A DNA stretch of 64,000 nucleotides from an uncultured bacterium (GTDB lineage Bacteria > Chloroflexota > UBA5177 > JANWHV01), in the NCBI GenBank assembly GCA_963827235.1, contig CAWHAE010000014.1, forward strand, positions 320,001 through 384,000. Direction: 5' to 3'. The notes under the pieces are model-generated. The model made no database searches, was not told where the DNA came from, and worked only from the letters and a program-made list of their open reading frames with translations. Made by a program: the position numbers and the translations under genes. Numbering within the stretch: the stretch's first letter is position 1; each line of letters begins with the position of its first letter. Positions 37,655 through 55,896 of the stretch are shown here, piece after piece.

Positions 37655-38131
37655 CAATTCACCTCGAAGCCGGAATGAATCCGCACCCGGCGCGCCGTGG
37701 CTCGGCGGGCTCATCGGATCGTGCCTACCCGGCCCAGTGTCGGGACGACCCGCCTTCAACGCACAGGCTGCCCAAGGTGCTCGTGGCGCCGTTGAACGTC
37801 GACACGCCGGCGCACCGCCACCACTGCAGCCGTGCAGCCGGCCGGCATGCGACAGGGATGCTCCTGTTCCACCGGCAACGGTCCATCGCTAGGTTCTGAC
37901 AGCATGGTGCCACCATCGCGCCTTCGGAGCAAGGCACAACTCGCTACCCCTGCGAGGCGTCGTGGTCCGGCCCGTGACCTGACTCGGGCCACACACGACG
38001 TGTCCCGAAAGGCGCGGAGCGTATATCATTTCGTTGTGCCGACGTGAACCGTGTGCTAGACTACCCCATGCCGTTCATGCTTCTTGCGCTCCTGTCAAGC
38101 GTGGTCGCTTGCCACTCATAAGGACGGGTTG

Positions 38132-40800
<2,669 letters not shown>

Positions 40801-40814
<14 letters not shown>

Positions 40815-51879: not shown

Positions 51880-52926
51880 CTACCGGGCAGCCGCCGGGCG
51901 CGCAGCGCGGCGCTTCTTCATGCGCTCGATGAACTTGCCAATGCCGAGCTCGTCGTTTTCCCACACCACGAGCAGTGGGCTCGCATTGAAGATTGAGCTA
52001 TACGTGCCGCTCGTGATGCCGATCAGCAGCGTAATCACGAAGATGCGTATGCTGGCGCCGCTGAACAGCAGCAGCGCGGTCAGCGTCATGAGCACGGTGA
52101 GCGACGTGTTCAGCGAGCGCGCCATCGACTGTAGGATGGCGTTGTTAACGACCAGCTCAAACGGCTCGCCGATACGGCGGGCCATGTTCTCGCGTATCCG
52201 GTCGAAGATTACGATGGTGTCGTGCACCGAGAAGCCGATCACGGTGAGCACCGCGGTGACGAACAACGAATCCACGGTCACTCCCAGCAGGCGGCCGAAT
52301 ACGGCGAAGAGGCCCATGACCACCAAGACGTCGTGAATCAGCGCGATGATGGCACACGTGCCGTAGCGGAACGGGTGCGCCACCTTGCGGAAAGCAAACG
52401 AGATGTACAGCAGTATGAACACGGCAGCAATCACCACTGCCGTCGCCGCGCGACTGCGGATCTGCGACCCGATGGCGCCTCCGACGTCCGTCTCCTGCTG
52501 AAGCGTGATGTTCTTGCAGGTTGGCAAAGGCACTTTGTACTGCCCGTGACCCACTGTCTTGACCAGCGAGCCGCAACCATATTCCTGGTAGAGCGGTGCC
52601 AGCACGGCCGCCAGCTTCTGGGGCGAGTCGCCGATAAACGGTATGCGCACGAGATAGTGCGCGCCGGTGCCGCCAGCGCCGCCAAGCGGCGTCGAGGAGA
52701 CGACTTCGGCCTCGCTCAGTTTGGCATTGGTGAGTACCGCGTTACGGATCTGATCCTCGAGATGCGCGCTTGCCGGTGTGCTGCTGAACTGCAGCGTGAG
52801 CTCGGTGCCTCCCGTGAAGTCGATCCCCAGCTTCAGGCCCCCGGCCAGGAAGAAGATGAAGCCGGGAACGATGATCACCAGTGAAAACAGGAAGTACCAG
52901 TAGCGATATCTGATGATGTTAATCAT
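51880..52926 (-). CDS. secF: Protein translocase subunit SecF
   Basis: LGIDFTGGT, ALIHDV, GFSVHDTIVIFDRIREN, RSLNTS, GTYSSIF. Confidence 0.96.
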   Translation of the reverse strand: MINIIRYRYWYFLFSLVIIVPGFIFFLAGGLKLGIDFTGGTELTLQFSSTPASAHLEDQIRNAVLTNAKLSEAEVVSSTPLGGAGGTGAHYLVRIPFIGDSPQKLAAVLAPLYQEYGCGSLVKTVGHGQYKVPLPTCKNITLQQETDVGGAIGSQIRSRAATAVVIAAVFILLYISFAFRKVAHPFRYGTCAIIALIHDVLVVMGLFAVFGRLLGVTVDSLFVTAVLTVIGFSVHDTIVIFDRIRENMARRIGEPFELVVNNAILQSMARSLNTSLTVLMTLTALLLFSGASIRIFVITLLIGITSGTYSSIFNASPLLVVWENDELGIGKFIERMKKRRAARPAAAR

Positions 52927-52975: not shown

Positions 52976-54376
52976 TCAGTCGTGCTGTCCCCTGGTCGCA
53001 CGCGGCTGAGAGGCAATACTCTCCATCCCGGCGCCGAACCACTTCGGGTCATAGCTGATGTTGCCTCGCACGAGCACCCGCAGGAATGTGCGCGTGATCA
53101 TGATCGCCGTGAACATTGAGACGGCAACGCCGATGCCCAGCGTGGTGGCAAAACCCGCGATAGTCGTGGCACCGTAGTTCTGGCCGAACCAGTACAGCAC
53201 GCAGCAGGTGATGATCGTGCTGACGTTCGAGTCGCGGATACTGGTCCACGCACGGTTGAATCCGGCCTCGATGGCAGCACCAAGCGTCTTCCCGGAGCGC
53301 AGCTCCTCTTTCAGTCGCTCAAAGATCAGTATGTTGGCGTCGACCGCCATGCCGATGGAGAGTATGAACCCGCCTATGCCCGCCAGGGTGAGCGTGATGC
53401 CGCTCGCGCCGCTGCCGCTGAATGGCCAGAGCTTGAACACGGCGACAGAAAGCGACGTGTAGATGAGCAGTGCAAGGTCCGCCAGCAGGCCGGGCAGCCT
53501 GTAGTTCATGACCATGAAGAACATCACGACGAGCATGCCGACGATGGCGGCCTTGACGCTGTCGTTGACATATTGGGACCCCAGCGTGGCGCTGATCTGG
53601 CTGCTGGCCTCGGCGGTAAACGCGATCGGCAAGGCACCATACTTGAGCCGGATTGCTATCGCCTTGGCCGTGTCGCTGCTGCCGATGTTGTTGATCTCGC
53701 CGTTGCCGCCGGTGATCGCCGACTGGATCTTCGGGTCAGTGACCACCTTGCCGTCGAGCACGAAGGCCATGTACTCGCCGACGTGATCAGTGGTGTAGGA
53801 AGAAAGCCGTCCACTGGCACCGCCCTTGGCGCCGAAGGTCACGATCGGCTGCCCGTACTGGTCGAAGGTCGAGCTGATCTGGCTGGAATCGAGCTCGTTG
53901 CCCTTCATGACGACGCAGGGAGTGGGGGCGTTCTTGGCGTCGCACAGCGTCGATGTGTTCGAGTATGGGAATGTGGCACCATCCTGGAGCACCGTCAGGC
54001 TGCCCATGCCGTACAGCACGAGCTCGCCGGTGCTGCCGATAGTCTGCCGCACCACCTCCGGGTCCCTCACGCCCGGCATCTCTACGTCGATAGCGTCGGT
54101 TCCCAGCTGCGTCACGATCGGCTCGGACACGCCGAACGCATTGACGCGCTTGGTAATGATGTCTATTGCCGCGCTCATGGCGTCGCTCGTGGCTGCTTTC
54201 GAGTTGCGTGCTTTGAGCTCCATGCTGAGGCCGCCGGTCAGGTCAAGGCCCTGGTGGATCGCGGTGCCGTGTCCAAACACCGTGAACTTGCCTGCCGTGC
54301 CCGCCAGATCCGCCAGGACGGCAGCAATCGTCAGCAGGATAATCCCGATCAGAGCTAAGTTAGCGTGTTGACGCAT
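52976..54376 (-). CDS. secD: Protein translocase subunit SecD
   Basis: GLDLTGG, RVNAFGVSEP, GALP, IGMAVDANILIFER.KEE, IRDSN. Confidence 0.96.
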   Translation of the reverse strand: MRQHANLALIGIILLTIAAVLADLAGTAGKFTVFGHGTAIHQGLDLTGGLSMELKARNSKAATSDAMSAAIDIITKRVNAFGVSEPIVTQLGTDAIDVEMPGVRDPEVVRQTIGSTGELVLYGMGSLTVLQDGATFPYSNTSTLCDAKNAPTPCVVMKGNELDSSQISSTFDQYGQPIVTFGAKGGASGRLSSYTTDHVGEYMAFVLDGKVVTDPKIQSAITGGNGEINNIGSSDTAKAIAIRLKYGALPIAFTAEASSQISATLGSQYVNDSVKAAIVGMLVVMFFMVMNYRLPGLLADLALLIYTSLSVAVFKLWPFSGSGASGITLTLAGIGGFILSIGMAVDANILIFERLKEELRSGKTLGAAIEAGFNRAWTSIRDSNVSTIITCCVLYWFGQNYGATTIAGFATTLGIGVAVSMFTAIMITRTFLRVLVRGNISYDPKWFGAGMESIASQPRATRGQHD

Positions 54377-54492
54377 ACGTGTACCTCTCAGTCTTCATCG
54401 CAGGAAACATGGACTGGGCCGGCCCGCTTCGCCGCACGGGCTGCGTGCCGCGGCGCGGCCGGTCGCGATCGCGTGCCTGGAGGGGATGAAAA

Positions 54493-54936
54493 CTAGGGAG
54501 CGCGTATGCGCGGCGGCGACTTGGCAGCGGAGGACGAAGGCACGACCTGAGACGCCGCCACCAGTGCTCTGTTCGTAGTACTGCCGGCGGTGTCCGAGGA
54601 CTTGTCGCCAAGCAACTGGACCGATCGCGGATCCCTCGCCCTGGGAGTGCGAGCAGGAGCGATGGCCGGAGCGGCGTCCAGCGATCGAAGGTGAGAGCCA
54701 TCCTGCTCGGGGCTTGAGAGCCCGGCCGAAGGCAGCAACAACGTCTGGCCGTCAATTGCCCCGGTGCTGATTGCCGATCGGGCCTGAGACACGTCCGACT
54801 GAAGCGCGGGCTGGACCGGAGCTTGCGCGAGATCGCGCGCACCGGCAATAGCGCCCACGCCGCCGCTGCCGGCGTGAAGCGAGGCGACGAAGATGGCGAG
54901 CGCGCGCACTAACGACGATACGGACCGCACACGCAT
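54493..54936 (-). CDS. Putative secDF leader (translation-arrest) peptide with N-terminal signal
   Basis: MRVRSVSSLVRALAIFVASLHA signal-like N-terminus; Ser/Ala/Pro linker; ends PPRIRAP*; CATAAT and GAGGTG upstream; 116 nt before secD. Confidence 0.65.
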   Translation of the reverse strand: MRVRSVSSLVRALAIFVASLHAGSGGVGAIAGARDLAQAPVQPALQSDVSQARSAISTGAIDGQTLLLPSAGLSSPEQDGSHLRSLDAAPAIAPARTPRARDPRSVQLLGDKSSDTAGSTTNRALVAASQVVPSSSAAKSPPRIRAP

Positions 54937-55056
54937 CAGGCTACTGTCACCTCGAGATTATGCTGCAGGCAGCCGGCACAGGCTGCCGAATGAGCACTCA
55001 CTAGTATCTTGGTCCAGGTGCCCGCGTGTCAAACGCGCAGAGCCCGTGGGGCGCCT

Positions 55057-55896
55057 TCACGGACGGTCGGTATACTCCACGCCGCGCAGCCTGCGTGACC
55101 TGGGACGCGGCGACGCAGGGCCCGCGTCGACGTCTGCGCCCACCCCGCCGCGAAAGTCGCGCGAATCAATGGTCACGCAGGTGCTAATCACAGGGTCCGA
55201 CATGCGAGAGGCGAGACGGCCGCCGATCTCGTCCAGCGAGCTATTCGTGGTGATCACCGTGGGCAGGCGATAGATGTAGCGGTGATTGAAAAGCTGATAG
55301 AGCTTCTCGGTCGCCCACTGCGTGCTGATCTGAGTACCCAGGTCATCAAGAATGAGGAGCTGAGCCTGGCGGACACCCTCGAAAAAGTCGTCGTAATCGA
55401 GCTCGCTTCCGGGCGCGTAGGCAGAACGCAAGTGGTCGAGCAGATCCGGAACGACCATGAACAGTGCCGGCTCTCCGATCGAGAGCCTGTAGTTGCCGAT
55501 AGCCGCGGCCAGATGGGTCTTCCCTGTCCCGTACCCTCCCATGATCACCAGCCACCCGTCAGGGCTGAGAGCGTACTGCTGGGCACGTTTGTGAGCATTC
55601 TGCTGCGGTGAGTCGACGATAAAGGACTCGAAGGTCATGCCGGCGAGAGCTCGCAAGTTGGATTTTTCCAGCAGTCGCTGCATCCGGCGCTCCGCTATCT
55701 CGCGCTCCTTGCAGGTGCAGGGCACGATACTGCCGAAGCGCGGATCGTCTACCGGCACGTCCAGGCGCAGGTACCCGGCACCGCGGCACTGGGCGCAAAC
55801 CGGAGTGAGGTCACGACTGGACGACGTGACCGTATCGGCCCCCGGTGTATTTCTCCGGATCTCCAGGCGCTTCAGGATGTCGCCGATCGATTCCAC
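55057..55896 (-). CDS. DnaC/DnaI (IstB-like) helicase loader AAA+ ATPase
   Basis: CAQCRG..Y...VPCTC zinc site, GGYGTGKTHLAAAI, LILDDLG, LFNHRY, TVITTN, RLASR; downstream of dnaB and dnaD. Confidence 0.88.
   Translation of the reverse strand: MESIGDILKRLEIRRNTPGADTVTSSSRDLTPVCAQCRGAGYLRLDVPVDDPRFGSIVPCTCKEREIAERRMQRLLEKSNLRALAGMTFESFIVDSPQQNAHKRAQQYALSPDGWLVIMGGYGTGKTHLAAAIGNYRLSIGEPALFMVVPDLLDHLRSAYAPGSELDYDDFFEGVRQAQLLILDDLGTQISTQWATEKLYQLFNHRYIYRLPTVITTNSSLDEIGGRLASRMSDPVISTCVTIDSRDFRGGVGADVDAGPASPRPRSRRLRGVEYTDRP

Follow-up and report, generated by a model that had tools for sequence, protein, structure and literature searches.

A conserved upstream open reading frame with a C-terminal Arg-Ala-Pro precedes secDF in a Chloroflexota genus and is a candidate Sec-monitoring arrest peptide

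The region upstream of secDF

We analyzed a stretch of 64,000 nucleotides (nt) from an uncultured member of the Chloroflexota (contig CAWHAE010000014.1, positions 320,001 to 384,000; hereafter the window, whose numbering is used throughout). On its minus strand, secD and secF are preceded by a 147-codon upstream open reading frame (uORF) that starts with MRVRSVSSLVRALAIFVASL and ends in SPPRIRAP followed by a TAG stop codon. An earlier note on this DNA had placed such a uORF directly in front of secD and had proposed that its product is a secretion-monitoring arrest peptide acting together with an RNA switch on secD. The uORF and its C-terminus are present as described, the uORF is a real conserved gene, and a comparison with its homologues and with published arrest peptides makes a Sec-monitoring function probable. 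The features of the locus are as follows.

55057, minus strand: stop of a DnaC/IstB-like ATPase gene (ATPase by Pfam), the upstream neighbour of the uORF
55003..55032, minus strand: promoter-like TTGACA-18 nt-GATACT between the stop of the DnaC-like gene and the uORF (10 of 12 matches)
54968..54987, minus strand: hairpin GGCAGCC-TGTGCC-GGCUGCC in the 5' untranslated region (5'-UTR), between the promoter-like site and the Shine-Dalgarno sequence (SD) of the uORF; judged by eye
54950..54953, minus strand: uORF SD GAGG, 13 nt 5' of the uORF ATG; CGAGG and the ATG are invariant in five of five aligned upstream regions
54493..54936 (codons 54936..54496), minus strand: uORF, 147 amino acids (aa) plus TAG, candidate monitoring or arrest peptide
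54838..54936, minus strand: signal-peptide-like N-terminus, residues 1-33, with basic residues R2, R4 and R11, the core ALAIFVASL and A-G-A before R34
54485..54511, minus strand: 5' arm of a long-range helix, made up of the last five sense codons of the uORF, its stop and the next 8 nt
54496..54504, minus strand: codons CGC GCU CCC of Arg145-Ala146-Pro147, the proposed arrest core, with Pro-tRNA placed in the P site
54493..54495, minus strand: TAG stop, proposed to occupy the A site when the ribosome stalls; TAG serves as a stop elsewhere in the window (end of secF)
116 nt, minus strand: spacer between the uORF stop and secD
54371..54399, minus strand: 3' arm of the long-range helix, made up of GAUGAAGACU, then the SD GAGAGG (54384..54389) and then the secD AUG (54374..54376)
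52976..54376, minus strand: secD, 466 aa (Pfam SecDF_P1_head, SecD_1st and SecD_SecF_C)
51880..52926, minus strand: secF, 348 aa (Pfam SecD_SecF_C at 1.6e-50)

Shuffled sequences yielded a mean of 0.1 promoter-like sites of this kind. TTGACA and (G/C)ATACT are kept in the genome of the window (G000), in the related genomes G001 and G004 and in the metagenome locus L058, with variable flanks; the contig of a further relative, G003, stops short of this position, so that the -35/-10 comparison covers four upstream regions. The 5'-UTR hairpin was compared at the aligned places in L029, L031, L030 and L058. Judged by eye in this one alignment, the stem seems to be retained in G003 and G004 as CGCGGC...GCCGCG despite changes on both sides, and it might stabilise the mRNA. 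A scan of 54000..55400 against Rfam gave no match at E up to 1.

Conservation and distribution of the uORF family

We collected homologues of the uORF from genomes and protein collections. A word-indexed search returned two relatives of 147 aa, both terminating in RIRAP. Among 61 related genomes, a full copy was found in G001 (RIRAP-TAG) and a truncated one in G002, and the region 5' of secD in G003 and G004 encodes a 142-aa homologue with the C-termini RARAPDAVTTGN and ARAPNAVSTGN. From 1.84 billion representatives, a profile search retrieved 13 proteins, of which 12 were new and one was P0002, and 90% clusters contributed eight more distinct sequences. A metagenome scan added one truncated copy, L058 (residues 1-81), which was used for the upstream alignment only. 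The final alignment comprises 26 distinct homologues of 142-166 aa, which are 17-56% identical to the protein of the window; it excludes P0015 as a duplicate and the copies of G002 and L058 as truncated. P0015 is letter-for-letter the G004 protein and carries the NCBI name 'hypothetical protein [Chloroflexota bacterium]'; P0019 bears the same organism label. As the search tool places G004 in the same genus as the genome of the window, we accept Chloroflexota as the phylum of the family, in line with the earlier proposal of a Chloroflexota arrest peptide. NCBI and JGI annotate the members as 'hypothetical protein'. Pfam scans found no family for any of the 18 members scanned (E up to 1), the window uORF included, the family profile found no chain in the PDB at E up to 10, and genome collections scanned for named relatives gave no match.

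The family is narrowly distributed. In a sample of 401 genomes of the phylum, its profile matched all five genomes of genus g1, including that of the window, and none of the 396 others (the unpublished genome G018 being used as a negative only); the 16 genomes from two other families of the class were likewise without a match. In four of four genomes whose assembly spans the complete uORF together with the DNA around it, the uORF lies directly 5' of secD. A search for a conserved uORF and motif in relatives had been suggested as a check and came out in favour of both. The distance from the Pro codon of RAP to the secD AUG is 119, 114, 121 and 123 nt, though the stop codon falls either directly after RAP or seven codons later. 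We also looked for analogues, defined by a hydrophobic N-terminus and an R/Q/H-A/G-P motif within the last 12 residues. SecD was found in 57 of the 61 relatives and its start codon could be set in 56; two genomes outside g1 had less than 300 nt upstream of secD. All four g1 genomes passed this filter, as did two of the 52 others (G008 and G045). By eye, one of these two candidates lies inside an upstream gene of 278 aa, of which it is a part, and the other is without a signal-like start; both were rejected.

The gene 5' of secD varies between the families of the class (L032, L033-L044). In G005 (L032), which belongs to another family, the same DnaC-like gene is found 280 nt upstream of secD and the uORF is missing, and in family f3 the position is taken by a gene of about 270-330 aa ending in ...FRFRARPE(V/L)T(L/F)xRL. 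The intergenic space before secD may have gained the uORF, or may have lost it.

Conservation within the peptide is concentrated at its ends. Ten columns are invariant in the 26-sequence alignment (R11, F16, A18, S19, G26, A33, P94, R145, A146 and P147), and only four of them, P94 and R-A-P, fall into the C-terminal two-thirds. The roughly 100 residues that separate the signal from RAP are hypervariable, rich in insertions and deletions and barely alignable; in the 17 RAP-bearing members among the 18 scanned this spacer measures 92-136 residues. Charge and hydropathy were computed on the same 18 sequences, which stem from an earlier alignment; the eight later ones show the same N-terminal consensus by eye. 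Residues 1-13 carry a net charge of +2 to +5 and the 9-residue core has a mean Kyte-Doolittle hydropathy of 2.1-2.6 in all 18. The uncharged run mostly spans only 12 residues, fewer than a membrane helix needs. Ala33, the putative -1 residue, does not vary in the 26-sequence alignment. A lipoprotein was ruled out as there is no Cys near the signal, and a twin-arginine translocation (Tat) signal as there is no conserved twin-arginine motif. The signal-like N-terminus noted for the window copy recurs across the family as a basic-then-hydrophobic start in all members, and a hypervariable linker stands ahead of the C-terminal RAP. In the four copies available as DNA, the Ala codon of RAP is GCU or GCG and the Pro codon CCC or CCG, and given this synonymous variation selection appears to act on the peptide. 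At the level of sequence, the pattern of conservation is that of a monitoring substrate.

The residue that follows RAP differs between members. Twenty-five of the 26 carry RAP, and the next position is a stop in six, Cys in 11, Asp in four, Asn in three and Ser in one; those reading past RAP continue with a tail of about 5-8 poorly conserved residues. RAPP occurs in none of the 25. The earlier note had cautioned that missing C bases in an indel-prone assembly could hide a RAPP at the end of the window copy. This concern can be set aside: besides the window, G001, P0001, P0002, P0003 and P0016 end in RAP-stop, and since five other independent sequences end likewise, RIRAP-stop is genuine and not an assembly artefact. 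In a maximum-likelihood tree, a branch with a support of 93/98 separates the six RAP-stop sequences from all others. With midpoint rooting they are nested among RAP-Cys and RAP-Asn sequences, while RAP-Cys occurs on both sides of the root. RAP-stop therefore looks like a derived minority state of a mostly RAP-Cys family, although the tree has no outgroup to fix the direction of change, and the tree suggests that it arose once.

Predicted pairing of the proposed arrest codons with the secD start

The second element proposed for this locus was a 10-bp helix abutting the SD of secD. Such a helix can form in the window: AGUUUUCAUC at 54494..54485 is complementary to GAUGAAGACU at 54399..54390 along 10 bp, one of which is a G-U pair. 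Folding of 54360..54530 gave a minimum-free-energy structure (-71.1 kcal/mol, z = -1.84, equalled by 10 of 200 shuffles) that holds this helix and extends it, with CCCU (the Pro codon and the U of the stop) pairing with the SD, and GCGCAUACG (the Arg-Ile-Arg codons) pairing with CGUAUGCGU over the secD AUG. In G000, 12 of the 17 bases from SD to AUG pair into the 28-nt footprint of a ribosome with CCC in its P site, and at least 12 paired bases were reached in only three of 300 dinucleotide shuffles of the whole sequence and in six of 300 shuffles of the 5' part. The consensus fold of G000 and G001 keeps 15 pairs that join the RIRAP-stop codons with the SD and AUG. Two codons in the 5' arm in the window are minor ones: across six neighbouring genes, AUA makes up 14 of 143 Ile codons and GCU 30 of 231 Ala codons.

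The comparison with relatives and the behaviour of the fold speak against a general role of this pairing. The 10-bp helix falls into the part that G000 and G001 do not have in common and is specific to the genome of the window. G001 pairs its SD in another register (CGUCUCCUC with GAGG.AGACG), and this pairing is not significant (nine of 17 bases; reached in 12 of 300 whole-sequence and 48 of 300 5'-part shuffles). In the consensus fold of G003 and G004, which carry RAPD and RAPN, the SD and AUG are single-stranded and no pairing between SD and arrest site is seen. Covariation of the stem had been named as a further check; the 15 pairs common to G000 and G001 are there, but none of them has changed on both sides, since both arms are constrained by coding or by SD and AUG function. 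When the footprint was forced open, at a cost of about 10 kcal/mol in G000, the mean unpaired probability from SD to AUG rose from 0.33 to 0.39 in G000 and from 0.23 to 0.25 in G001, went from 0.38 to 0.42 in G004 and stayed at 0.48 in G003 (0.48 to 0.48). In G000 the accessibility of the SD hardly changes because the SD finds other partners. An RNA switch on secD is not a family-wide feature and is the weak part of the case; for the RAP-stop clade only, we consider it somewhat less likely than not.

A probable RAPP-like monitoring peptide and its alternatives

Peptides that monitor Sec or YidC are known from several phyla. A systematic screen sought short uORFs of unannotated function directly before secA, secDF or yidC with an N-terminal signal or transmembrane segment and more than 30 residues between this segment and a conserved motif (Fujiwara 2024, PMC10987492). 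In the family studied here, a short unannotated uORF lies directly before secDF (116 nt before secD in the window), RAP is conserved next to a largely unconserved linker, and the spacer of 92-136 residues exceeds 30. The N-terminal signal is putative, its charge and hydropathy fitting a Sec signal peptide in 18 of 18 members scanned. The Methods of the same study list RAP*, RAPC, RAPD, RAPS, RAPA, RAPT and others as natural motifs of the ApcA cluster (PMC10987492), so that RAP*, RAPC, RAPD and RAPS of the uORF family all lie inside the published RAPP-like query set; RAPN is present in the uA_RQH_Bacteroidales rows of Supplementary file 6. Members of uA_RQH_Bacteroidales read ...KIRAPS or ...KIRAPN and ApdP reads QSKCI-RAPP (Morici 2024, PMC10951233), which provides a precedent for the IRAP of the window. 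Measurements on ApcA and ApdP place Cys, Asn, Asp and Ser among the best A-site residues other than proline (Sakiyama 2021, PMC7897499). Toeprinting has demonstrated that uDF_NAP-stop and uA_NSP-stop stall while the A site contains a stop codon, with residues -3 and -1 being important in uDF_NAP-stop, and the code of the screen searched secDF uORFs for 'RAP$|RGP$' and kept the orders Rhodothermales and UBA7662 (Bacteroidota) (Fujiwara 2024, PMC10987492).

In sequence, then, the uORF family fits the published RAPP-like class, with a putative N-terminal signal. By analogy, it appears closest to ApcA in behaviour, with a tolerant A site and a stop variant, and resembles ApdA and ApdP in architecture. 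ApcA (Actinobacteriota, before yidC2, RAPG and variants) likewise has RAP in the P site followed by a variable position; Cys, Asn, Ser and Asp support its arrest, and the uORF family shows the same spread of Cys, Asp, Asn, Ser and stop. Unlike the uORF family, which has a signal-peptide-like N-terminus and secDF downstream, ApcA has an N-terminal transmembrane segment, precedes yidC and belongs to another phylum, and there is no similarity beyond RAP. ApdA and ApdP share the signal sequence, the variable linker, the C-terminal RAP and the position before secDF, and the CIRAPP of ApdP shares IRAP; in contrast to the uORF family (RAPP in none of 25, one SecD match), they are proline-dependent RAPP peptides that serve a second secDF. 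The uDF_NAP-stop and RAP$/RGP$ uORFs of Bacteroidota resemble the RAP-stop members in having a C-terminal Pro followed by a stop before secDF, but uDF_NAP-stop stems from another phylum, mostly has Asn at -3 where Arg is found here, and is not homologous; moreover, Pro is the very C-terminus in only six of the 26 members, the rest mostly continuing past RAP. The proposed logic is also that of SecM (RAGP, before secA), in which a signal is combined with an arrest motif at the C-terminus and with a stem that covers the downstream start and is opened by the stalled ribosome, whereas motif and downstream gene differ and the uORF members have no match to PF06558. A second-ranked Atlas feature match to the SecM cluster (0.85) lay below the threshold of the tool, did not recur with the G003 homologue and was treated as noise. 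The Pfam and PDB searches revealed no homology to ApcA, ApdA, ApdP, uDF_NAP-stop or SecM.

Taking these likenesses together with the conservation of the family, we consider the most likely product of the uORF to be a RAPP-like peptide that arrests the ribosome and monitors Sec, a reading that we hold with moderate confidence. The peptide would be made from its own promoter and SD, and its N-terminal signal would emerge and engage the Sec translocon while the ribosome is still about 110 residues short of Arg-Ala-Pro. Once ...RIRAP-tRNA(Pro) occupies the P site, the peptidyl-transferase centre would be brought by the RAP core into a non-productive geometry. In most members, where Cys, Asn, Asp or Ser is the poor acceptor, this would block transfer, and in the clade of the window, with UAG in the A site, it would slow peptide release by the release factor. 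In the RAP-stop clade only, the paused ribosome would cover the 27-nt 5' arm (54511..54485), and because this arm otherwise pairs with the secD SD and AUG, secDF translation would rise; the pull of an active translocon would end the pause and secDF would fall back. We tentatively suggest that within one orthologous family the same RAP core may block two chemistries, peptidyl transfer to the tRNAs of Cys, Asn, Asp or Ser and, at UAG, hydrolysis by the release factor. In the RAP-stop clade the arrest codons themselves may have turned into the strand that masks the SD and AUG of secD.

Several observations weigh against an arrest peptide. In ApdA and ApdP, each substitution of the A-site Pro raised reporter read-through (Sakiyama 2021, PMC7897499), and RAP in the P site has been proposed to prevent bond formation with an accommodated A-site Pro-tRNA (Morici 2024, PMC10951233); with no RAPP among the 25 RAP-bearing members, any arrest may be weak or work differently. 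ApdA, ApdP and VemP regulate a second secDF copy, whereas the genome of the window has only one SecD match and secDF is thus single-copy here. The signal peptide was called from hydropathy and charge alone. Finally, P0008 is without RAP, the sole such member; it stands beside RAPC sequences in the tree, is known from its protein alone and may be a frameshifted or decaying copy.

We wondered whether the uORF might instead encode an ordinary small exported or membrane-associated protein that is co-transcribed with secDF, for example a lineage-specific accessory factor in the position of yajC, with RAP serving the mature protein. A signal-like N-terminus would fit any exported protein, yajC often occupies this position, and the genome of the window has no YajC above the Pfam cut-off (best match 20 bits versus 28.2). 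Nevertheless, at E up to 1 none of the 18 members scanned matches YajC (PF02699) or another family in Pfam, by which a divergent YajC is ruled out. Between signal and RAP only P94 is invariant in an indel-rich stretch unlike a folded functional domain, and the other conserved piece is a tripeptide identical to a known arrest core and followed by arrest-supporting residues. We therefore regard a small exported protein as unlikely.

Still less probable is a leader ORF with ordinary translational coupling, in which any ribosome that finishes the uORF melts the helix and neither programmed arrest nor secretion sensing is involved. As the 5' arm lies within the last uORF codons, every terminating ribosome must open the helix, and in the published case a ribosome on an arrest-defective mutant still transiently disrupts the stem (Fujiwara 2024, PMC10987492). 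Coupling would, however, leave the invariant RAP, the conserved signal sequence and the spacer of 92-136 residues unexplained, and the clade of G003 and G004, which is without the helix, still keeps RAP.

A C-terminal proline slows termination, and TnaC stalls at Pro-stop. By analogy with TnaC, a ribosome that stalls where the uORF ends could act on transcription by blocking the loading of Rho on the spacer and so allow transcription into secDF. The spacer contains no intrinsic terminator and the first 15 nt past the uORF stop are without G, as would suit such control. The spacers are nonetheless G+C-rich and structured, with C/G ratios of 1.14 and 1.26 for the two genomes with RAP-stop, and of 0.62 and 0.63 for G003 and G004; this base composition, which is not C-rich and G-poor, rules out a Rho loading site, and we consider TnaC-like control very improbable. 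A chance open frame in G+C-rich DNA would suit a G+C content at third codon positions (0.73) barely above that at second positions (0.62) and a further 162-aa frame that is also open here, but it is contradicted by 26 homologues with conserved ends and start signals and by the fact that only the uORF frame stays open (142-147 codons) in four genomes, and can practically be dismissed.

In the literature searched we found no Sec or YidC monitoring peptide from Chloroflexota, although one may be listed in the uSecDF table (MOESM6, Supplementary Data 3) or the PDF supplements of Fujiwara 2024; the main texts of Fujiwara 2024 (PMC10987492) and Sakiyama 2021 (PMC7897499) contain 'Chloroflex' 0 times. 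The uORF peptide would extend known biology without adding a new principle. If it stalls ribosomes, it would be a lineage-restricted case for the "patchy" repeated invention of RAP-type arrest. Close relatives differing only in a sense codon versus a stop in the A site would then be useful for comparing elongation and termination arrest, and the natural RAP variants would form a ready series for asking if arrest of the RAP type depends on the substrate in the A site.

Other Sec loci of the genome of the window were inspected for comparison. No similar uORF was seen before secA or yidC. The yidC locus (L064, contig C8, 1201..3041, minus strand) has the usual order rpmH-rnpA-yidD-yidC and no leader peptide. 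The secA gene of the window (38217..40814, plus strand) appears to be frameshifted, its canonical N-terminus being encoded at 38084..38272 (plus strand) and the remaining 865 aa at 38217..40814, with the two frames overlapping near 38220..38270; the break could be an assembly indel or real, and is consistent with the remark on an indel-prone assembly. In G001 (L029, 946..2900, plus strand), the uORF and secD share one frame, giving an open frame of 653 aa that is interrupted by one TAG and by no other stop in the 111-nt spacer. Read-through of this TAG would hence fuse the two products, but the shared frame is probably a coincidence because the frames differ in the window, where 560 nt separate the two start codons.

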